A DNA stretch of 56,732 bases. Source: a virus. Its lineage: Duplodnaviria > Caudoviricetes. Shown here piece after piece: positions 9,485 to 52,920 of the stretch. How positions within the stretch are numbered: the stretch's first letter is position 1; each line of letters opens with the position of its first letter. Where the stretch lies: positions 1-56,732 of the IMG/VR virus record IMGVR_UViG_3300037262_000027. One strand, given 5' to 3'. The notes under the pieces were generated by a model. It was not told the origin of the DNA. It was given only the letters and a program-made list of their open reading frames with translations, and searched no databases. The position numbers and the translations under genes are program-made.

Positions 9485-11140
9485 ATGAGCGCTCTAGCAG
9501 AGCTCGTGGAGAACGCCGACGCTGCCCAGAAACGGCGTGACGAGTTGGTCACGCGCCGCGACACGGCAGAGGCGGAGTTCCGCACCATCGTCGACGGCCT
9601 CCGCCAGGAGTCCGGCGAGGACCGCGACCCAGACACAAAAGAGGCAGCTCGCTGCGAGGAGCTGCGCTCGGAGATCGACGAGGCCGACGAAGCCCTCGCC
9701 GAGGTCCGCAAGGAACGCAAGGCGATCCGCCGTCGCATCAAGGAGGAGAAGGAGAACGCCGACGACGCGAGCCTGATCGCAGAGGCCCGTGAGCGGATTG
9801 CATCGGTGGACTCGATCGCCGACGTGACAGTGACGCAGGGCGAGCGGCCGATCTACGGGGTAGCGCCCGACGGTCTGCGCTCGCCGAACTCCTTCTACAT
9901 GGATCTCGTGCTCCGCACGAAAGCGCGGTTCACGGGCGAGAACGACCACGGGGCGAACAAGCGCCTGAACGAATGGGCGCATCAGGTCGAGAAGGAGCAC
10001 GCCCACGGCACGCCGTTCGGCAAAGCCGCGCTCCCGCAGATCCGCGAAACGTATCGAGGCGAGGACCCGATCGGCACGAAGGAGCGGATGAAGGAATTCG
10101 AGGAGCGCGGACGGCTCGGGATCGAGGACAAGTCATCGCTCGAGGCGCGTGCGACCGCGATCGGCACCGACGGTGGTGCCTCGGCCACGGCCCCCGGTGA
10201 AGGCTCGGCGTTCGTTACGCCGGTCTTCGACGTCGGCAAGTACGCTCCGTGGCGCGAATACGGGCGGGCGTTCGCTGACGCTTGCGCGAAAGAACAGCTC
10301 CCGCCGTACGGGATGTATGTCTACATCCCGCACGTCACCGGAGGCGCAGAAGTCACGGGCGTCACCGAGTCCTCCGGCTCGACGACGATCGCCGACCTGG
10401 CACCGACGGCGGGCTACCTCTCGGGAGCGTTGAAAACGTTCGCCGGGCAGGTCGTCGTTTCGCAGCAGCTGCTCGATCGGGCTGGCCCGAACTTCGCGTT
10501 CGACCGGCTCATCTTCGACCAGATGATGCGCAACTACGCGCTCAACTTCGACACCTACGTGCTCGAAGTGGCGCTGACCGAAGCGAAAGTGAACAACTGG
10601 AAAGGCAACGCTGGCACGTTCGTGTTCCTCGAAAAGGAAAAGGCCGGCGGCTTCTACGGGCAGGTTGCCAAAGCGAAGGCCGACGTCCGCACGACTGCGG
10701 GCACGGTCCTGAACCCGACGCACCTGTTCGTTCGTCCGACGCGGTGGGAGTACCTGGCGGCATTCGCCGGCTCGGAATTCCGCCCGCTGATCGCGCCGAA
10801 CTACGCGGGTCCGTTCAACTCGGCCGCGAGTGGCTCGGCCGACGGTGACGAGGGCATCGAGGGAGCGACGGGTTACAAACTCGCCGGTCTGCCGGTGTTC
10901 ACCGACCAGAACATCCCCGACCAGGGAACCACGACCAACGACCAGGCGCTCGTCGGATGTCTGGACGAGACGTGGGTGTTCGAGGGGGCAATCACGCCTC
11001 GGACGATTCCACAGACCAAAGCCAACACGCTCCAGGTAATTCTACAACAGTATAGTTATGCGACCGTCATCAAGAGGTACGCAGAAAGCGTCGTAGCGAT
11101 CAATGGCGAAGGAATGAAAGCGGTTTCCTACACCAACTAG
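9485..11140 (+). CDS. Major capsid protein 1 (HK97 fold, coiled-coil delta/scaffold N-terminus)
   Basis: Follows protease; ~120-aa charged coil; TFAGQVVVSQQLLDR, LAGLPVFTDQNIP. Confidence 0.9.
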   Translation: MSALAELVENADAAQKRRDELVTRRDTAEAEFRTIVDGLRQESGEDRDPDTKEAARCEELRSEIDEADEALAEVRKERKAIRRRIKEEKENADDASLIAEARERIASVDSIADVTVTQGERPIYGVAPDGLRSPNSFYMDLVLRTKARFTGENDHGANKRLNEWAHQVEKEHAHGTPFGKAALPQIRETYRGEDPIGTKERMKEFEERGRLGIEDKSSLEARATAIGTDGGASATAPGEGSAFVTPVFDVGKYAPWREYGRAFADACAKEQLPPYGMYVYIPHVTGGAEVTGVTESSGSTTIADLAPTAGYLSGALKTFAGQVVVSQQLLDRAGPNFAFDRLIFDQMMRNYALNFDTYVLEVALTEAKVNNWKGNAGTFVFLEKEKAGGFYGQVAKAKADVRTTAGTVLNPTHLFVRPTRWEYLAAFAGSEFRPLIAPNYAGPFNSAASGSADGDEGIEGATGYKLAGLPVFTDQNIPDQGTTTNDQALVGCLDETWVFEGAITPRTIPQTKANTLQVILQQYSYATVIKRYAESVVAINGEGMKAVSYTN

Positions 11141-11179: not shown

Positions 11180-11251
11180 TGCGGCGTAGTGGAAGGGTCA
11201 CCATCCGGGCCTCATAAGCCTGGGGACTGGGTTCGAGTCCCAGCGCCGCCA
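11180..11251 (+). tRNA. tRNA with CAT anticodon (Met, fMet or Ile2)
   Basis: Acceptor GCGGCG/CGCCGC with 1:72 mismatch, D arm GTGG/CCAT, anticodon arm CGGGC-CTCATAA-GCCTG, T arm CTGGG-TTCGAGT-CCCAG. Confidence 0.85.
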
Positions 11252-44870: not shown

Positions 44871-45117
44871 GCATCCTCATCCCCTGCGCCATCGTGGCCT
44901 ACTGCCTCGTCGTGCTCGCCACCTGCCGCGTGCTGCGTCACCTGCGGCGGGCCACGACGCACACTCCAAGACTGCGCGGGCGGCGATGACGCCCCCATCA
45001 CCTGGCGTCGGGTCCGCAGACCATCCGTCGCCCGTGCAGAAGCTACCTGTAGCCGAGGCGCGAGCCAGCGAGGGTCCCTCCTCCCTTGCCGGTGTAGACC
45101 GCTCTGAGGGTAAGCCA

Positions 45118-45339
45118 ATGCCCAGGCTGTCGCGGGATGAGGTTCGGCCTCCGCGATACGGGCAACTCCTCGCAGTAGAGCAGTGGCGCAGAGCCACGCG
45201 GGAGTCCCGGCTCCGCTCCGAGGCCCGAAGGCATGAGCCGAAAAGCTCGGGCCTCCCCGCCCTCCTGTTCGGTGTCCTCCTGGCTGTCGTGGGGGCGTGG
45301 CTGCTGCTGGCCTATCTGGGTGTGGGGGTCGGCTTATGA
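45118..45339 (+). CDS. Small membrane protein
   Basis: C-terminal TM helix. Confidence 0.55.
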   Translation: MPRLSRDEVRPPRYGQLLAVEQWRRATRESRLRSEARRHEPKSSGLPALLFGVLLAVVGAWLLLAYLGVGVGL

Positions 45340-45620
45340 GCGAGGCCCTGGAGCTGGTGCGCGAGATGAAGCCGTGGAAAGCGGGTCAAGAGCTGGCGCT
45401 GTACCGCCAAGGCTCGGAGTACATGGTGGTCTCGACGGTCAACCTCTCCCAAGCCTTCCTCGGCGGCTACGCGACGGCTGGCGAGGAGACGATGGCGTTC
45501 GCCGCAGACGAGCAGGGCGAGGTCACGGACTGGGGCGAGCTTGCCTGCGCCAACGGCGAGGGCAGCCGCGCGGACGTCATCGAGCAGCTTGCATCGGGCC
45601 ACCGCGAGGCCCGCTGGTGA
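45336..45620 (+). CDS. Hypothetical protein
   Basis: YMVVS..ETMAFAADEQG.V.DW.EL; coupled overlaps. Confidence 0.65.
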   Translation: MSEALELVREMKPWKAGQELALYRQGSEYMVVSTVNLSQAFLGGYATAGEETMAFAADEQGEVTDWGELACANGEGSRADVIEQLASGHREARW

Positions 45621-45952
45621 CCGCCCCCCGCGTCGCCCCCCGAGCCAAGATCCGGGTCCTGCTCTCCGGGGAATGGCTCTACGGCACCGTCAACCGCCGC
45701 GAGTTCGCCCGGGCCACGCACCCCGATGAGAAGCTCTCGACGTTCAAGCTGACCAAACGGGGCTGGAAAGGGCTGCGCTCGGTGGTAGAGGTCGTGGGCT
45801 CTCAGGTCGCTGCGTGGGAGTGGCAAGCGCCGCCCGCCGCAGCGAAGCGGAGGCGTCCTCAACCGAAAGCCGAACCGCCCACCGTCCCTGCCGAAATCTC
45901 CGAGGCTGATCGTGAGGCCCTTTCAGCGCATATGGCGGGGGTGCGGGGGTGA
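45617..45952 (+). CDS. Hypothetical protein
   Basis: GTGA coupling; 111 aa. Confidence 0.5.
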   Translation: MTAPRVAPRAKIRVLLSGEWLYGTVNRREFARATHPDEKLSTFKLTKRGWKGLRSVVEVVGSQVAAWEWQAPPAAAKRRRPQPKAEPPTVPAEISEADREALSAHMAGVRG

Positions 45953-46157
45953 AGCGCACCGTCACCACGCAGATCGTCGGGGACCTCGGAACCCGCTGGA
46001 CCCGACGGGGTGCCCAGCGCCTCGCTGACGAGTCGAACCGAGGCCCCGCCATGAACCGGCCCGTCGAGTACCGGGTGCTCCGGGTGAGGCTGCTCTGCTG
46101 GTCGGTCATCGGCTATCAGGCGGTGCTTGAGTCGACGGACCGGACGCGGGGTGAAGG

Positions 46158-46364
46158 GTGACGACCGGCACTCAGGTTCAAGCGGCGGCCTGTCTGGGCT
46201 GCGGCGTGACGTGGCTGTTCCCTGACGACCTGCCCGAGTCTGAGGACCCACGCAACCAGTTTCCCGTCGAGTCCGGACCGTGGGGCCTGCCGTGTCCTGA
46301 CTGCGGGGGTGTGATCTGGGTCACAGACCCGATGGCCCGGACCGAGCTTGAGGAGCGGCCGTGA
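46158..46364 (+). CDS. Zinc-ribbon protein
   Basis: CLGC...CPDCGG. Confidence 0.55.
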   Translation: MTTGTQVQAAACLGCGVTWLFPDDLPESEDPRNQFPVESGPWGLPCPDCGGVIWVTDPMARTELEERP

Positions 46365-46423
46365 CCACCGCCGAGGCCGACCTCTCCACCACCCCCGGAG
46401 CAAACCAACCCAAGGAGCAATGC

Positions 46424-46675
46424 ATGTTCGAGATAGGCGAGAAGGTCTTCATCCGTACCGTCACGTTCCACTACATCGGCGAGATCAGCGAGCGCGATGG
46501 CGACTGGCTGACCCTGAAGAACGCGAGCTGGGTTGCTGATAGCGGTCGTTTCCACGTGGCGATCCGCGATGGGAAGCTAAACGAGGTCGAGTTCGTCGGT
46601 GACGCCTCGGTGAACCTCGCGACCGCGACCGATGCGCTGCCGTGGAAGCACGATCTGCCGTCAGAGAGCAAGTAG
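46424..46675 (+). CDS. Small Sm-like/SH3-barrel protein
   Basis: AAGGAG RBS; IGEKVFIRTVTFHYIGEI....DWLTLKNASWVADSGRF..EVE..V...AT.DA. Confidence 0.7.
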   Translation: MFEIGEKVFIRTVTFHYIGEISERDGDWLTLKNASWVADSGRFHVAIRDGKLNEVEFVGDASVNLATATDALPWKHDLPSESK

Positions 46676-46682
46676 AACGGCC

Positions 46683-46931
46683 ATGACGCCAGCTATCTAC
46701 ATCGGCAGTCCGTGGTCGCGGTCGTGGTCGTGGTCGCGGTCGTGGTCGCGGTCGCGGTCGCGGTCGTGGTCGCGGTCGCGGTCGCGGTCGTGGTCGCGGT
46801 CGTGGTCGCGGTCGTGGTCGCGGTCGTGGTCGCGGTCGCGGTCGCGGTCGTGGTCGCGGTCGTGGTCGCGGTCGTGGTCGCGGTCGCGGTCGTGGTCGCG
46901 GTCGCGGTCGTGGTCGTGGTCGCGGTCGTGA
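46683..46931 (+). CDS. 82-aa RS/WS dipeptide-repeat protein
   Basis: ATG plus 10-aa leader, then 36 X-Ser units; TGA exactly at repeat end, overlapping next ATG. Confidence 0.6.
   Translation: MTPAIYIGSPWSRSWSWSRSWSRSRSRSWSRSRSRSWSRSWSRSWSRSWSRSRSRSWSRSWSRSWSRSRSWSRSRSWSWSRS
46713..46928 (+). repeat. Tandem hexamer array (C/T)GGTCG x36
   Basis: Only two unit types: TGGTCG (15) and CGGTCG (21). Confidence 0.97.
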
Positions 46932-47092
46932 TGGCCGGTCGCGGTCTACCAGACCAGGCGACGCGGGGTTATGACTTCGACCCGCTGCCCGAGAGCGGCT
47001 GGTGCCCGTTCTGTGGTACCGAGGGCATCCTGCGGCATGTCGAGTCGGCTCAGGACCTACTCAGGCGCACCGCCCCGGAGTTGTTCCGATGA
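46931..47092 (+). CDS. Small CxxC protein
   Basis: TGATG coupling; WCPFCG. Confidence 0.5.
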   Translation: MAGRGLPDQATRGYDFDPLPESGWCPFCGTEGILRHVESAQDLLRRTAPELFR

Positions 47093-47640
47093 CCACCGCC
47101 GAGGCCGACCTCTCCACCACCCCCGGAGCCCTGGAGCAGCCAGCGCGGCAGATTCCGCTCTGGGCTCGCGATGGCAGCGTCCGCGCTTGGGTGCTCGTCG
47201 ACGATGCCGACTTCCAGTGGCTCAGCCGGTGGCGCTGGCATATGCACTTGGGCTACGCCGCCAGAACAGTCCGTCGGATGTACAAGATGCGGATGCACCG
47301 CCAGATCCTTGGCTTGGAGCCCGGCGACCCGCGCATGGGCGAGCACATTGACCGCAATCCGCTCAACAATCAGCGGTCCAACCTACGCATCGCCGAGCAC
47401 GGCCAGCTCGACAACAAACAGAACGTCGGAGAGCAGGCAAACAACACGTCGCGCTTTCGTGGGGTGTTTCGGGACAAGCGGCGACTGAGCAGGCCGTGGT
47501 ATGCGCAGGCGCAGATCGGCCGAAAGAGATACTGCCTCGGCACCTTCGCCACCGGGGAGGAAGCGGATAGAGCGGTCAAAGCGTGGCGAGCTGAGCACAT
47601 GCCGTTTTCCGACGACGCGCGGGTCGGGGTCGAGCCGTGA
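47089..47640 (+). CDS. HNH endonuclease with AP2 domain
   Basis: LVDDADF, MHRQIL, EHIDRNPLNNQRSNLR, NTSRFRGV, WYAQ..LGTF.T.EEA. Confidence 0.9.
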   Translation: MTTAEADLSTTPGALEQPARQIPLWARDGSVRAWVLVDDADFQWLSRWRWHMHLGYAARTVRRMYKMRMHRQILGLEPGDPRMGEHIDRNPLNNQRSNLRIAEHGQLDNKQNVGEQANNTSRFRGVFRDKRRLSRPWYAQAQIGRKRYCLGTFATGEEADRAVKAWRAEHMPFSDDARVGVEP

Positions 47641-48542
47641 ACGTCGCTGTGGTCGACGGCGAGGTACTTGACCGGGACATCCCCGGCGTCGGGCTACTGC
47701 ACTTCGAGGATCTCGGGCCCGGCGAATGGCTCACCAAGGCGGCCGAGCCCGCGAAGGCGAGACGACGCCGCTACATGCTGGACGGCGAGGAGTACATCTC
47801 CGTCTCACAGATCACCGCGACCTTAGGCAAGCAAGAGGCGCTGGTGCCGTGGGCCGAACGCGAGAGTATCGAGGCGACCATCCGCGCGATCCAGAGTGGC
47901 GCGCTCGACCCGCGCACCGCGCCTGAGGAGGCCGTGCGGCTGTTGCGCGAGGAGAAGCTCGGCGCCGCAGGCGTGCGCGACCGGGCAGCCCAGCGCGGCA
48001 AGGCGATCCACGCCGTCATCTACCGCTATCTGACCACGGGCGAGTTCCCGCATCGCGGCGAGGACCCCGCCGACTGGTGGGCGTGGATGCAGGGCACCGC
48101 CAAGGCGCTGCTCGCGCTCCTGCCCGAACCCGAGGAGGCCGAGCAGCCCGTCTGCAACCCCATGCACCGCTACGCCGGCCGGCCGGACCTGATCGCCCGC
48201 TGCCGCTGGCGGGGGCGCTCGACACGGCTGCTGCTGGACTACAAGACCGGCAAAGGCCGCATCTACGACTCGGCCCACTACCAGACCCGCCTGTACGACG
48301 CGTGCCTAGAGCCATGCCAGATCGAACCGGTCGAGGACATCCTGATCCTCGGCATCGACGACAGCGGGGGCTTCGAGCTCGTACGCTGCGAAATCAGCGA
48401 GTCCGACGCGCTCGACCTGCTGTCGGTCCACCGCTCACGCAAACAGGTCAACGCCGGGATGGCCGCTCAACGCAAGGCGAAACGGCCCATCGACTCAGCG
48501 TGCGAGAGCCGGAACCGGGCGGAGAAGAAGGCGCGGGCGTGA
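47637..48542 (+). CDS. PD-(D/E)XK exonuclease
   Basis: SVSQI, RGKAIH, YAGRPDL, LLDYKTG, Q..LY. Confidence 0.85.
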   Translation: MNVAVVDGEVLDRDIPGVGLLHFEDLGPGEWLTKAAEPAKARRRRYMLDGEEYISVSQITATLGKQEALVPWAERESIEATIRAIQSGALDPRTAPEEAVRLLREEKLGAAGVRDRAAQRGKAIHAVIYRYLTTGEFPHRGEDPADWWAWMQGTAKALLALLPEPEEAEQPVCNPMHRYAGRPDLIARCRWRGRSTRLLLDYKTGKGRIYDSAHYQTRLYDACLEPCQIEPVEDILILGIDDSGGFELVRCEISESDALDLLSVHRSRKQVNAGMAAQRKAKRPIDSACESRNRAEKKARA

Positions 48543-49107: not shown

Positions 49108-49436
49108 GCACCGGCATCACCTTCACACCCCTCCCGATCACCGGCATGATCGGCTGCGGAGTCCCGGTCCTGCCGGGGACGCCCGACGTTGACGCCCCGC
49201 TGGAGGAGCGCACCGAGCTGTGCGCGGTCGATGCCAACTGGCTGATCGGAGCAGTCCCTACCTGCGACTCCCACGCCCGCGTCGTCTGCGAACTCACCGA
49301 GATCGACTGGTCCGGGGTCGTCGCTGAGGCTGGCCGCGAGATGGAGTCAGCCGAACGCCCGTGGGCGGACCGGGAACGGCACTCCCAAGCTGAGGCCCGC
49401 GACCATCTGGCGCACTTCACCGGATCCTGCGCGTGA
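49104..49436 (+). CDS. Hypothetical protein
   Basis: GTGA coupling; C..C..CxxH. Confidence 0.55.
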   Translation: MSTGITFTPLPITGMIGCGVPVLPGTPDVDAPLEERTELCAVDANWLIGAVPTCDSHARVVCELTEIDWSGVVAEAGREMESAERPWADRERHSQAEARDHLAHFTGSCA

Positions 49437-52063
49437 ACAAGCGCGCCTATTCCCGGTTCCTGCGTCAGAAGGCGACGCTGGCATCGAACGATGGCTTTGA
49501 GATCGACCGAGCGGAGCTGAGCCCGGTCCTCAAGCCGCACCAGGCGGAGCTCGTGACGTGGGCGGTGAGGGGTGGCCGGCGCGCGATCTTCGCGGCGTTC
49601 GGGATCGGCAAGAGCGTGATCCAGCTTGAGACGCTGCGGCTGACGTTGGCGCACGGGCCCGTTAACGGCCGTGGGCTCATCGTCTGCCCGCTCGGCGTCC
49701 AGCAGGAGTTCGCCCACGACGCGCAGCTGCTCGGGCTGCCCGAGCTCGTCCGGGTGCGCACGACCGAGGAGGCGCAAGGCCTGCCGCCGGGAACGCTGGC
49801 GATCACGAACTACGAGCCGGTCCGCGACGGCAAGCTCGACCCGAACCTGTTTACGGCCGTGTCGCTGGACGAGGCGGCGATCCTGCGGTCGTTCGGCTCG
49901 AAGACCTACCAGACGTTCCTGACCCTGTTCGATGAGGTGCGCTATCGCTTCGTGGCCACGGCCACGCCCTCGCCGAACCGCTACAAGGAGCTGATCCACT
50001 ACGCCGGCTTCCTCGGGATCCTCGACACCGGGCAGGCCCTGACCCGGTTCTTCAAGCGCGACTCCACACAGGCGAACAACCTGACGCTGTTGGAGTCTCA
50101 GGAAGCGAGCTTCTGGCTATGGCTGGCGAGCTGGTCGGTCTGGCTGCAGAGCCCGGCCGAACTCTGCGAGTGCTCATGCCACGCGCGCCCGCGCAAGTGC
50201 CGACGCTGCGCCTGCGCGGATTACGTGCTACCCCAACTCGACCTGAAATACGAGGAGGTCGCCATCGACCACCAGGCGCGCTCGCAGGAGGAACGCGACG
50301 GGCAGACCTACCTGCTCGCGGACGCGACGCTCGGCGTCTCACAAGCTGCACGAGAGAAGCGCGCCACGCTCGATGACCGGGTGGCGCGGACGATCGAGTT
50401 GGGCCGTGGCTACCTGGACGCCGACCCATCCGACCAGCTCATCATCTTCTGCCACCTGAACGACGAGCAGCGCGCGCTCGAGCGAGCGCTCGACGCCGCC
50501 AGCATCAGCTACTCCTCGATCGACGGCTCGATGAGCTCAGAGCGCGTCGACGGTCTGCTCGCCGACTGGAGGGCCAAGCGGACAACGGTCCTGCTCGGCA
50601 AGCCGGTGATGCTCGGCGTCGGGCTCAACCTGCAGCAGGCGAACAAGATGATCTTCGCCGGGATTGACTTCCGCTTCCACGACACGATCCAAGCCTGCCA
50701 CCGGATCCAGCGCTTCGGCCAGACGCGCACCTGCCGAGTCCACCTGATCCACGCAGAATCCGAGCGCTCAGTGCTGGACGTGCTGGCCGCGAAGTGGCGC
50801 CAACACGAGGAGCTGACCGACAACATGAGCAAGCAGATTGCAGAGCACGGGCTCGCCCACGCGAACCTCAAGGAGGCGCTGAGCCGCAGCCTCGGCGTCG
50901 AGCGCATCGAAGCTGCCGGCGAGCGCTGGACGCTCGTCAACAACGACTGCGTCCCGGAGCTGATGGCGATGGCCGCCGAGTCGGTCGACCTGATCGTGAC
51001 GAGCATCCCGTTCTCGAACCACTACGAGTACACGCCCGCCTATGAGGACTTGGGCTTCACCGAGGACAACGCGCACTTCTGGGAGCAGATGGACTTCCTG
51101 ACCCCCGAGCTGCTGCGAGTGCTGCAGCCGGGCCGCGTCTATGCCTGCCATGTCAAGGACCGGATCCTGTTTGGCAACGTCACCGGCGCCGGCCTGCCGA
51201 CGAGCTCGCCCTTCCACGCCGAGGCGATCATGCACGGCATCCGCCACGGCTTCGACTACCTCGGCATGGTCACGGTCATCACCGATGTCGTGCGCGAGAA
51301 CAATCAGACCTACCGGCTCGGCTGGTCGGAGCAATGCAAGGACGGCACGAAGATGGGCGTCGGCTCGCCCGAGTATGTCCTCCTGTTCCACAAGCCGCAG
51401 AGCGATCGGAGCAAAGGCTACGCCGACGCGCCGGTCACGAAGGACAAGCAGGTGTACTCACGCTCGCGCTGGCAGACCGACGCCCACGCCTTCTGGCGCT
51501 CAAGCGGCGACCGGCACCTGACGACCGAGGAGATGGCGCACATGGGACCCGACAAGCTCGCCGCGCTGTTCACCGCGCAGAGCCTTCAAGGCGTCTACGA
51601 CCATGAGGCGCACGTCCACATCGGCGAGGAACTCGACGCCCGCGGCGCGCTGCCCTCATCCTTCATGGCGCTCGCGCCCGGCTCGCATGATGAGATGGTC
51701 TGGCACGACGTGAGCCGGATGCGGACGCTCAACTCAGAGCAGCGCCAGCGCCACGCTGCGCTCCACGTCTGCCCGCTGCAGCTCGACATCGTGGATCGCC
51801 TCATCCGCCGCTACTCCAATGAGGGCGAGCTCGTGCTCGACCCGTTCTCAGGACTCGGCACGGTGCCAGTGCGCGCACTCGCGCTCGGCCGGCGCGGCTA
51901 CGGCGTCGAGCTGAACAACAGCTACTTCCTCGACGCGATCGCCTACTGCCAGGCGCAGGACCGCGAGCAGTCGATGCCCTCGCTGTTCGACGCGCTGGAG
52001 CCCTCAGAGCCCACCGAGAAGCCTCCCGCGCGCCGCCGAGCACGCAAGAAGGCCGCGGCGTGA
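49433..52063 (+). CDS. SF2 helicase / N4-N6 DNA methyltransferase fusion
   Basis: AFGIGKS, DEAA, TAT, HRIQRFGQ; TSIPF and DPFSGLGT (beta-class order). Confidence 0.92.
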   Translation: MNKRAYSRFLRQKATLASNDGFEIDRAELSPVLKPHQAELVTWAVRGGRRAIFAAFGIGKSVIQLETLRLTLAHGPVNGRGLIVCPLGVQQEFAHDAQLLGLPELVRVRTTEEAQGLPPGTLAITNYEPVRDGKLDPNLFTAVSLDEAAILRSFGSKTYQTFLTLFDEVRYRFVATATPSPNRYKELIHYAGFLGILDTGQALTRFFKRDSTQANNLTLLESQEASFWLWLASWSVWLQSPAELCECSCHARPRKCRRCACADYVLPQLDLKYEEVAIDHQARSQEERDGQTYLLADATLGVSQAAREKRATLDDRVARTIELGRGYLDADPSDQLIIFCHLNDEQRALERALDAASISYSSIDGSMSSERVDGLLADWRAKRTTVLLGKPVMLGVGLNLQQANKMIFAGIDFRFHDTIQACHRIQRFGQTRTCRVHLIHAESERSVLDVLAAKWRQHEELTDNMSKQIAEHGLAHANLKEALSRSLGVERIEAAGERWTLVNNDCVPELMAMAAESVDLIVTSIPFSNHYEYTPAYEDLGFTEDNAHFWEQMDFLTPELLRVLQPGRVYACHVKDRILFGNVTGAGLPTSSPFHAEAIMHGIRHGFDYLGMVTVITDVVRENNQTYRLGWSEQCKDGTKMGVGSPEYVLLFHKPQSDRSKGYADAPVTKDKQVYSRSRWQTDAHAFWRSSGDRHLTTEEMAHMGPDKLAALFTAQSLQGVYDHEAHVHIGEELDARGALPSSFMALAPGSHDEMVWHDVSRMRTLNSEQRQRHAALHVCPLQLDIVDRLIRRYSNEGELVLDPFSGLGTVPVRALALGRRGYGVELNNSYFLDAIAYCQAQDREQSMPSLFDALEPSEPTEKPPARRRARKKAAA

Positions 52064-52094
52064 TGGGAACCGGTTTCACCGCAAGGGGTCGCGC

Positions 52095-52229
52095 TTACGC
52101 AGCCGCCAAAGCCCCCTGCGTAGACGCCGAATCCGCACGTTCCGAGGCTTGCGTAAACCGCATACGCACGCAACGGGTCAGAGGCCCCCGCTGCACGGCG
52201 TTACGCAGGCGAACCCATGCGTCTACGCT
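52095..52229. promoter_or_regulatory. Candidate res-like recombinase-binding region
   Basis: TACGCA/TGCGTA half-sites at 52096, 52117, 52150, 52163, 52202; inverted GCGTAGACGC/GCGTCTACGC. Confidence 0.55.
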
Positions 52230-52236
52230 GGAGGCG

Positions 52237-52920
52237 ATGGCACTGCAGCTGATCGGCTATGCGCGCGTCTCGACCGACGAGCAGGCGCTCTACGGCTACG
52301 GCCTGGACGCCCAGGAGTCAAAGCTCCGCGAGCACGCCCGCCGCGCCGGCGCTGAGATGGTCGTGATCCGCGACGAGGGGATCAGCGGCAAGGCGCTCGA
52401 GCGGCCGGGCCTGATGCGCGCGCTCGCCCGGATCGCCGCAGGAGACGCCGACGGGCTCGTGGTCGCGAAGCTCGACCGGCTGACCCGTTCAGTGATCGAC
52501 TTCGCGATGCTCCTGGAGTGGTTCACGGTCGCGGACGCGCTGCTCGTCGCGCTTGACTTTGACTTGGACACCTCGACGCCCGCAGGCCGGCTCGTCGCGA
52601 CGATCATGGCGGGCGTCGCCGAGTGGGAGCGCGGCGTGATCGCCCAGCGCACCCGCGAGGGCCTGGCCGCGGCGCGGGCGCAGGGACGCCCGGTCGGACG
52701 CCCGGCGATCGCCGATGAGCTGGCACAGCGCGTCCGCCGGATGCGCGAGGAGGGCACGACGCTACAGGCGATCTGCGACCAGCTCAACGCCGAGAAGGTG
52801 CCGACGGCGCGCGGCGCGAGCGAATGGCGCCCCTCAGCGATCCAGCGGGCGCTCGGCTATGAGCGCCGGCCGCGTCGCCGCAAGATCGCGACGCTACCCG
52901 AGCTCCCCCGGCGCCGCTGA
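52237..52920 (+). CDS. Serine recombinase (resolvase/invertase type)
   Basis: GGAGG RBS; YARVSTDEQ, DEGISG..RPGL, KLDRLTRS, C-terminal HTH. Confidence 0.95.
   Translation: MALQLIGYARVSTDEQALYGYGLDAQESKLREHARRAGAEMVVIRDEGISGKALERPGLMRALARIAAGDADGLVVAKLDRLTRSVIDFAMLLEWFTVADALLVALDFDLDTSTPAGRLVATIMAGVAEWERGVIAQRTREGLAAARAQGRPVGRPAIADELAQRVRRMREEGTTLQAICDQLNAEKVPTARGASEWRPSAIQRALGYERRPRRRKIATLPELPRRR

Follow-up and report, generated by a model that had tools for sequence, protein, structure and literature searches.

The window analysed here is a stretch of 56,732 nucleotides (nt) that spans a whole IMG/VR virus record of 56.7 kb (IMGVR_UViG_3300037262_000027; Duplodnaviria, Caudoviricetes; completeness estimate 62%). 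It carries two small adjacent genes, which are the subject of this study: one for an acidic protein of 83 amino acids (aa) with a predicted Sm-type fold, and one for an 82-aa peptide that consists of a short hydrophobic leader and 36 dipeptides of the form Trp-Ser or Arg-Ser, encoded by an array of hexamers (Table 1). The ATG of the peptide gene lies 7 nt 3' of the stop codon of the Sm-like gene and the two are probably translationally coupled. By collecting relatives from viral and bacterial sequences we found that they represent a self-contained gene pair that is common among uncultured phages. The original prediction for this DNA, made from the letters alone, had described an 83-aa gene, a 7-nt gap, a 10-aa leader and 36 hexamers of two kinds, all of which were confirmed by reading and counting.

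Table 1. The gene pair and neighbouring features (positions within the window)
Feature	Position	Strand	Remarks
tRNA-Met	11181-11250		sole tRNA of the window; between a 551-aa open reading frame (ORF; 9485-11140) and the major head protein gene
40-nt direct repeat, left	46362-46401	+	includes the stop codon of the zinc-ribbon gene upstream; contains 13 codons that also open the HNH gene
AAGGAG, Shine-Dalgarno-like	46412-46417	+	6 nt 5' of ATG 46424
Sm-fold protein gene, 83 aa	46424-46675	+	family A, acidic; ATG to TAG
Peptide gene, 82 aa	46683-46931	+	10-aa hydrophobic leader and (Trp/Arg-Ser)x36; ATG to TGA
Leader of the peptide gene	46683-46712	+	10 codons
Hexamer array, 36 units	46713-46928	+	21 CGGTCG and 15 TGGTCG, order aperiodic; codes for the repeat part of the peptide
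53-aa ORF with one CxxC	46931-47092	+	start derived from the array; probably a truncated remnant
HNH-AP2 endonuclease gene	47089-47640	+	3' of the cassette
40-nt direct repeat, right	47090-47129	+	at the start of the HNH-AP2 gene
PD-(D/E)XK exonuclease gene, phrog_298	47637-48542		after the HNH-AP2 gene
876-aa helicase gene with C-terminal DNA methyltransferase-like region, then, by start-stop overlap, serine recombinase/integrase gene	49433-52920

The hexamer array is the coding sequence of the Trp/Arg-Ser repeat peptide. Tandem Repeats Finder gave it a score of 360, by far the highest of the 46 rows for the window, and the window has 37 copies of the 12-mer YGGTCGYGGTCG (shuffle mean 0.18), of which 35 fall inside the array. 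The stop codon (TGA, 46929-46931) abuts the last unit and overlaps by one base with the ATG (46931) of the 53-aa CxxC ORF, just as had been predicted; two extra units at 46936-46947 lie past this stop and are out of register. The earlier statement that every Ser codon is TCG and every Arg codon CGG holds within the array (36/36 and 21/21, respectively) but not for the leader, of which the lone Ser is encoded by AGT. Having two kinds of unit only, the array of the window contains no Gly, and it is unusual in that respect alone. The two products have opposite charges, i.e. an isoelectric point (pI) of 5.0 and a net charge of -5 for the Sm-like protein and a pI of 12 and a net charge of +20 for the peptide. 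A 14-nt stretch in the 3' end of the Sm-like gene (46618-46631) is the exact reverse complement of array units; we discarded it as a functional element because it is not kept in the related loci L090 and L091, and take it to be due to chance.

All three plus-strand frames of the array are open, reading Trp/Arg-Ser, Val/Ala and Gly-Arg. On the opposite strand an Arg-Pro frame is open from stop to stop and lacks a start codon; such an antisense Pro-X frame, in which the variable base becomes a synonymous third position, was rejected given that it has no start here, that its second residue is not kept and that arrays of the TCA type (242 units, see below) put stops in it. The Val/Ala frame gives rise to another reading: with a G+C fraction at third positions of 0.90 it runs from a GTG at 46712 without a stop into the CxxC ORF, and the real product of the window could accordingly be a 126-aa protein (46712-47092) with a CxxC tail. 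We consider this very improbable, as TAG stops occur in the same frame of arrays of the TCT type and the frame is not kept in the family, while the CxxC part is a fragment without a counterpart at other arrays and no ribosome-binding site is evident.

The reality of the array was assessed with contigs from other assemblies, namely of run X1 (peat, possibly the source sample) and of runs X2 (permafrost) and X3 (peat), both from other studies. Contigs of X1 cover 45800-46391, 46372-46740, 46901-47119 and 47100-48000 with 0 differences, and X2 and X3 yielded pieces of the cassette, again with 0 differences, the left flank being uncovered in X3. The contigs break at the 40-nt repeat and within the array, and 46741-46900 is bridged by none of them, so that the number and order of the units are without independent confirmation. 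The array and its ends are real: both junctions are confirmed, although the interior is not bridged. It is extremely improbable that we are dealing with an assembly artefact or with meaningless slippage DNA. The unbridged interior would agree with such an explanation, as would the frequent ending of contigs at such arrays (L011, L013, L015, L018, L020, L027 and L041), but the junctions recur in X1 and the cassette pieces in two other studies without a single difference, 67 of 80 related viral loci retain the frame, the leader and the stop, and homologous arrays lie on contigs of 2.3-2.5 Mb in metagenome-assembled genomes (MAGs), i.e. such arrays survive assembly at the scale of a chromosome. 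The depth of the cassette contigs as compared to the flanks is 9.4 and 17 versus 14.2 and 14.4 in X1, and 3.8 and 3.4 versus 7.1 and 5.3 in X2, a mixed outcome that cannot show cassette-free genomes; a joint across the repeats was not seen. The depth summed over the array bins (46688-46983) amounts to up to 329 in X1, 1,012 in X2 and 2,919 in X5, with 3-14 in the flanks. These values, 10 to 300 times those of the flanks in X1, X2 and X5, imply that the peat and permafrost samples contain many more organisms with like arrays.

In the case of the 83-aa protein, 0 Pfam families and no PHROG family were matched and a word-based search yielded 63 relatives, none of them named. A profile search of 1.84 billion representatives recovered 1,902 members at E<=1e-3 and 1,261 at E<=1e-10 (family A; its representatives stand for clusters at 50% identity), the window gene itself matching the profile with an E-value of 2.1e-42. 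From an alignment of 39 members AlphaFold2 predicted a five-stranded barrel with a mean pLDDT of 95.9 (strands 7-12, 16-25, 28-39, 54-64 and 68-73). When this model was compared to the PDB with Foldseek, 44 of the 45 rows listed were Sm, LSm or LSm-domain proteins or entries holding them (best match E 6.6e-4, TM 0.63). An all-against-all structure search that is independent of Foldseek ranked yeast SmF first (Z 8.9, root mean square deviation 1.9 A over 64 residues), with archaeal SmAP1 and numerous LSm chains next and Hfq lower (Z 5.4-6.0); 31 of its first 32 rows were Sm, LSm or Sm-like proteins or complexes holding them, the remaining one being an unnamed hypothetical protein. The modelled fold is that of an Sm/LSm-type barrel, as had been proposed on the basis of the sequence.

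The best conserved patches of family A are RTVT.H, ASWVADSGRF and EVE. PF22253 (DUF6948) is found on 14% of the members of one neighbouring Atlas cluster and matched neither the window protein nor any of the 39 aligned members. Among the 12 longest representatives there are four tandem fusions of two domains (P0064, P0065, P0070 and P0194), which fit a protein that packs side by side; the remaining ones have N-terminal extensions or upstream arrays read in the wrong frame, and a Ser-X tail occurs in none. A search for longer versions that contain a fusion found none. In P0083, P0164 and P0207 we observed gene calls that join an upstream array, read as Gly-Leu, Gly-His/Gln or Val-Glu, to the Sm-like gene. 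A complex prediction for the Sm-like protein and peptide residues 1-40, both entered as alignments, scored 0.00, a value that without controls counts neither for nor against binding.

To establish how widely the pair is conserved, viral sequences were searched with an alignment as query: 107 of 115 stretches proved to be relatives, of which the best 80 were kept (four of these are the same contigs as L002-L005). The first six viral relatives, with 39-60% identity and a very different G+C content, all have an adjacent hexamer array. Over the set, an ORF on the same strand that encodes a leader and (Ser-[Arg/Gly/Trp])n is present by a strict pattern at 63 of the 80 loci, and four more (L025, L032, L066 and L072) have degenerate arrays, which brings the number to 67; L065 has an acidic Gly-X array in place of Ser-X. 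Of 47 candidate stretches from bacterial genomes four proved to be relatives, each of them with the array. Two of these four are the long contigs mentioned above (2.3-2.5 Mb), from MAGs of Solirubrobacterales at 69-70% identity; these loci point to an actinobacterial host. The idea of a two-component module is hereby borne out, as is the statement, likewise part of the original prediction, that small genes of this sort adjoin Ser-X or Gly-X repeats in further phages. Next to a single Sm-like gene 1 to 6 copies of the peptide gene are found: L090 has two full tandem copies and a remnant leader, L091 three full copies and a fourth that is cut off, and the leader in both is identical to that of the window at 8 of 11 residues. 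At 3130-3210 of L090 lies a third, decayed leader without an array, followed by a G+C-rich hairpin that resembles the end of a transcription unit. Same-strand GGC-NAT arrays, encoding acidic Gly-(Asp/Tyr/Ser) repeats, were seen next to Sm-like genes in L006 (2690-2890 and 4020-4074) and L065 (1265-1362); in L006 they occur together with three Ser-X genes and look like a second flavour of repeat partner.

The association was also approached from the side of the array. A search for at least six [C/G/T]GGTCG units returned at least 120 viral stretches, 80 of which were listed. Where at least 500 nt of 5' flank was available (53 loci), a family A gene was found on the same strand within 600 nt in 30 cases, and a gene of a sister family (family B, see below) in 12 more; over all 80 listed loci family A was found in 36, in 34 of these 5' of the array. 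Any other protein family that recurred within 1.5 kb did so in a single phage lineage only, from which we infer that the unit consists of the two genes and nothing else. The pair occurs among phages that infect many different hosts. Family A spans phages of 27% to 69% G+C and is also found in MAGs assigned to Solirubrobacterales and Phycisphaerales. Among 50,697 deposited phage records, searched with three queries, there was a single match, MW202573.1 (Caudoviricetes sp. ctTUS972), where both members of the pair (UOF78857.1 and UOF78858.1) are annotated as hypothetical proteins and the 43-aa Ser-X ORF, called in the Ser-X frame, overlaps the Sm-like gene; culture-based phage biology thus has missed the pair. 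The next gene in this record (L216, 1891-2232) is annotated as a zinc finger domain protein and shows no relation to the CxxC fragment of the window beyond the Cys pairs. Full-text searches of the literature found no description of the gene pair in the papers covered.

Family B (L097, L101, L108, L117, L120, L140, L141, L144, L156, L169, L170 and L174) comprises proteins of 85-127 aa without a Pfam match that are encoded directly upstream of Ser-X genes with basic leaders. Its relation to family A is apparent at the profile level only (hhalign probability 94.8%, E 4.9e-8, 76 columns), and its model is again an Sm barrel, including the N-terminal helix (pLDDT 78.8); the family B profile had no match among PDB sequences. 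The leaders beside family A are short and hydrophobic, with on average 0.33 Lys plus Arg residues (n=24), and those beside family B are basic, with on average 3.25 (n=12). This pattern agrees with recognition, by the leader, of the Sm-like protein encoded next to it; it could also have come about by shared descent.

The arrays change by the gain and loss of blocks, and faster than their flanks. The loci L034 and L042 have an identical Sm gene (222/222 nt compared) and identical leaders, and their arrays differ by an indel of two units (12 nt) and four substitutions, three of them at the variable base; in the sole other close pair with arrays, L037 and L038, the arrays are identical. In L091 four exact copies of a 30-nt leader precede arrays of 26, 28 and 28 units and the cut-off fourth, the units being in different orders, and the strings of variable bases have shifted blocks in common. 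Phages have in common the Ser-X frame, the leader and the residue composition (mean at X over 94 array segments: Trp 0.27, Arg 0.37, Gly 0.28) but not the order and number of units, as is expected if the function rests on charge and aromatic content and not on a folded shape. Compared to shuffles, Trp, Arg and Gly are spread slightly more evenly (mean runs-z of 0.4-0.5 for 74-85 arrays and 2.6 for the window), which higher-order repeats could explain.

The Ser codons argue that it is the peptide that is being conserved. In 2,285 units from 68 of 85 sources Ser is encoded by TCG (808), TCT (679), AGC (346), TCA (242), AGT (162) and TCC (48), i.e. by the TCN box in 1,777 and the AGY box in 508 units, and no single synonymous step interconverts the two. 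The Ser-X frame has an ATG and a recognisable leader 5' and a stop within a few codons of the end of the array. The products of the two remaining sense frames and of the antisense frames differ between phages or are interrupted. Since the Ser codon differs between phages and the Ser-X frame is kept, the peptide frame is what is conserved.

Taking these data together we favour, with moderate confidence, a reading in which the pair supplies an Sm-fold platform and a detached polycationic tail that acts on nucleic acid. The Sm-fold protein, probably as an oligomer, would serve as the structured platform. The peptide would form a separate tail, multivalent through its Arg and Trp residues, and would bind, coat or condense RNA or DNA, and the leader would be the part by which the cognate Sm-like protein is recognised. 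That the two products act together is fairly probable, and that they act on nucleic acid in the early or middle phase of infection is a more tentative suggestion.

Several observations weigh against this reading, those on codon usage in the next paragraph included. There is no sequence match to LSM (PF01423) or Hfq for the window protein, LSM is found in 0 of the 39 family members, and a search of the window with PF01423 returned nothing at E<=1, the control having matched 11 of 14 genomes. Searched against PDB sequences, the family A profile gave one match at chance level (E 0.049) and no solved Sm sequence. The RNA-binding residues of the Sm1 and Sm2 motifs are an Asn in loop 3 and an Arg-Gly in loop 5; by eye, the 39-member alignment of family A appears to show a variable loop between strands 2 and 3 and no Arg-Gly between strands 4 and 5. 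At 12 of the 80 Sm-like loci the array is absent (three end within 100 nt 3' of the gene, five are one phage sampled five times, and the others are L022, L026, L079 and L087), and neither a family A nor a family B gene is found at 11 of the 53 array loci. The unbridged interior of the array is to be counted here as well.

The X codon is of the form NGG in 88% of the units (TGG 606, GGG 595, AGG 565 and CGG 251) and in 36/36 units of the window. Within the arrays Arg is AGG or CGG in 816 of 854 cases (96%) and Gly is GGG in 595 of 640 (93%), as compared to 26-36% and 14-25%, respectively, in ordinary long ORFs of the same loci. Even at loci below 40% G+C there are 188 AGG versus 26 AGA and 138 GGG versus 30 GGA and GGT, where the background is 26% and 14%. 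Third-position variants of the X codon (88) are no commoner than second-position variants (123). NGG is therefore far above background and is not needed for a function of the peptide only, which leaves a constraint at the nucleotide level to be accounted for: either every X is a recent one-step derivative of TGG that arose through fast turnover, or the GG is selected as nucleic acid. The second option leads to an alternative in which the array functions at the RNA level: its GG, recurring every 6 nt, would be the ligand of an Sm-like ring (an autoregulator or sponge), and the peptide would be secondary or the array dual-coded. Proteins with an Sm/Hfq-type fold bind periodic single-stranded RNA. 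Besides the NGG codons and this fold, the RNA of the window array itself agrees with the alternative, as it is predicted to fold into one long G-U-containing hairpin of -167 kcal/mol (z -6.5; 0 of 200 shuffles as stable). We nevertheless regard it as unlikely: the spacer bases always form a Ser codon, from two unrelated boxes, in a frame with ATG and leader, a stop follows close behind the array, and NGG may simply result from Trp being TGG only, with Arg and Gly one first-base step away, under fast turnover. Moreover, arrays of the AGY type (508/2,285 units) are without the self-complementary GGUC core, so that the hairpin is not general, and Rfam gave no match. Of the two alternatives named in the original prediction the peptide is the better supported one, through the changes of Ser box and the conservation of Ser-X frame, leader and stop, while the repeat RNA has the GG excess on its side.

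A combination of the two, which we hold to be distinctly unlikely, is that the Sm-like ring would read the mRNA with its GG per six bases and thereby set the dose of the peptide, and that ring, RNA and peptide (with Arg/Trp as 'stickers' and Ser/Gly as 'spacers') would form a condensate that captures host or phage RNA. If true, this would constitute a minimal granule system of viral origin, common among uncultured phages, for which no bacterial counterpart has been described.

In the window the gene pair lies within a cassette bounded by two 40-nt direct repeats that are 100% identical (0 matches expected), in line with what had been predicted. The stop of the upstream zinc-ribbon gene lies inside the GTGA of the left repeat. 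The 5' leader of the pair starts directly after that repeat and resembles an A/C-rich stretch before the gene in L090 and L091. Between the repeats lie 688 base pairs (bp), and recombination between them would excise a unit of exactly 728 bp and restore the coupling between the zinc-ribbon gene and the HNH gene. The insert also carries a fragment of a foreign zinc-ribbon gene (see below), and we conclude that it arrived by recombination and could be lost likewise. Searches of deposited phages for near and distant DNA matches found nothing, viral contigs contained no exact match to the 39-nt repeat, and the HNH protein has one distant relative only; these searches brought up no cassette-free sister genome by which the insertion could be dated.

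The CxxC ORF, which had been described as coupled to the repeat ORF, turned out to be a fragment of an unrelated gene. From 46967 onwards it corresponds, at 80% identity, to the last 40 codons of a 112-codon gene with two Cys pairs that is whole in L008 and L009, and nothing else in L008 matches the window. It has no counterpart beside other arrays, and there is no significant paralogy between it and the upstream zinc-ribbon gene (E 0.11 and 0.15). With a start derived from the array and its last 40 codons from the 112-codon gene, it is probably a chimeric remnant that lies outside the module.

The genome has a siphovirus-like organisation, with terminase, portal, protease, head and tape-measure genes within the first 35 kb and the endolysin gene at 40.9 kb, followed by small genes. 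The gene pair stands at the head of a block of recombination and replication genes. The phrog_298 exonuclease gene adjoins it in the window as well as in L004, and of the eight settings in phages or prophages that were inspected (the window and seven loci) three have recombination or exonuclease genes beside the pair, namely the window, L004 and L007. No sigma-70-like promoter and no intrinsic terminator were found in 45000-48500.

This setting bears on two further explanations. Arg/Trp antimicrobial peptides act on the membrane or on nucleic acid, and the peptide could by analogy be an effector, a polycation that harms the cell at either site and is held or dosed by the acidic Sm-like protein for use in host takeover, exclusion of other phages or the timing of lysis. 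The opposite net charges (+20 and -5), the filling of all 36 X positions by Trp and Arg, the tight coupling that the 7-nt gap suggests and the 1 to 6 peptide genes per Sm-like gene are in line with an effector and its keeper. Such a role seems unlikely nonetheless, given that the peptide has no signal or membrane segment, that Gly makes up on average 28% of X elsewhere and dilutes the amphipathic character, and that the pair adjoins recombination genes and not the endolysin gene. Counter-defence is an improbable explanation: a fast-evolving decoy or inhibitor would mask the phage nucleic acid or block a host defence protein, with the array as an arms-race surface. It would account for arrays that change faster than their flanks and vary in copy number, for a pair that moves among unrelated phages (27% to 69% G+C) without fixed neighbours, and for the repeat-bounded insert in the window, but it is the composition rather than the sequence that is conserved, unlike in most known specific inhibitors.

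Some more specific ideas found no support. The suggestion that the peptide senses tRNA supply is not supported by the window's one tRNA, which is for Met and lies far from the pair. With respect to a diversity-generating retroelement, the reverse transcriptase model PF00078 finds nothing in the record, with its estimated completeness of 62% (the control matched 3 of 14 genomes), and there is no second copy of the array in the window that could be a template. A modifying enzyme as known for ribosomally synthesized and post-translationally modified peptides is not apparent, since within 1.5 kb the Sm-like gene is the sole neighbour family shared by several phage lineages. A kinship with eukaryotic Arg/Ser (RS) domains is reduced to an analogy of composition, no RNA recognition motif being present; the sole Pfam match of the peptide, PRP38_assoc (E 0.17, 12.9 bits versus a cut-off of 25), is sub-threshold and of low complexity.

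The gene pair is of significance beyond this phage. Around 1,900 cluster representatives are without a Pfam model or functional annotation, and their Ser-X partner genes are easily miscalled in the wrong frame (as in the Gly-Leu and Val-Glu misreadings), which bears on gene finding in repeats in general. If the pair acts on RNA, it would represent a new and very compact viral use of the Sm fold and a natural test bed for function that follows from Arg/Trp/Ser/Gly composition alone. The NGG rule, finally, poses the question whether it reflects selection, acting on either the peptide or the RNA, or the way in which repeats turn over.

Several known systems can be compared to the pair. Eukaryotic Sm and LSm proteins such as SmB, SmD1, SmD3 and LSm4 have Arg-Gly-rich tails, and they share with the pair the combination of an Sm-type barrel with a basic, low-complexity segment of dipeptide repeats. 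In the phages, however, a gene of its own encodes the repeat together with a leader, and the repeat is of the Ser-X type with Trp instead of Arg-Gly; in addition there is no LSM sequence match, the carrier is a phage of bacteria and the fold is known here by prediction. The GGGGCC expansion of C9orf72, from which poly-GR and poly-PR are produced, likewise is a hexamer array that is open in several frames, yields Arg-containing dipeptide repeats and gives structured G-rich RNA, but it is pathological and has no start codon, whereas the phage array has a defined ATG, a leader, a stop and conservation across phages. The TRAP ring of Bacillus, which binds (G/U)AG repeats spaced 2-3 nt apart in a non-coding leader, is a model for the alternative in which the array acts as RNA, since TRAP reads a short triplet with G that recurs every 5-6 nt, much as the putative Sm-like ring would do; it differs in its fold, in the non-coding leader as target and in having no peptide partner.

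The nearest paper that we found concerns the Sm ribonucleoproteins of Borgs (Schoelmerich et al. 2023, PMC9879509). In that study these proteins of archaeal elements are described as having fused N-terminal extensions of tandem repeats with units of 4 to 17 aa and as keeping the Sm1 and Sm2 motifs (PMC9879509). The phage pair differs in that its genes are split, its repeat is a dipeptide and its Sm-like family is divergent, but in both cases a mobile element encodes an Sm protein that is tied to a fast-evolving, disordered tandem repeat (PMC9879509).

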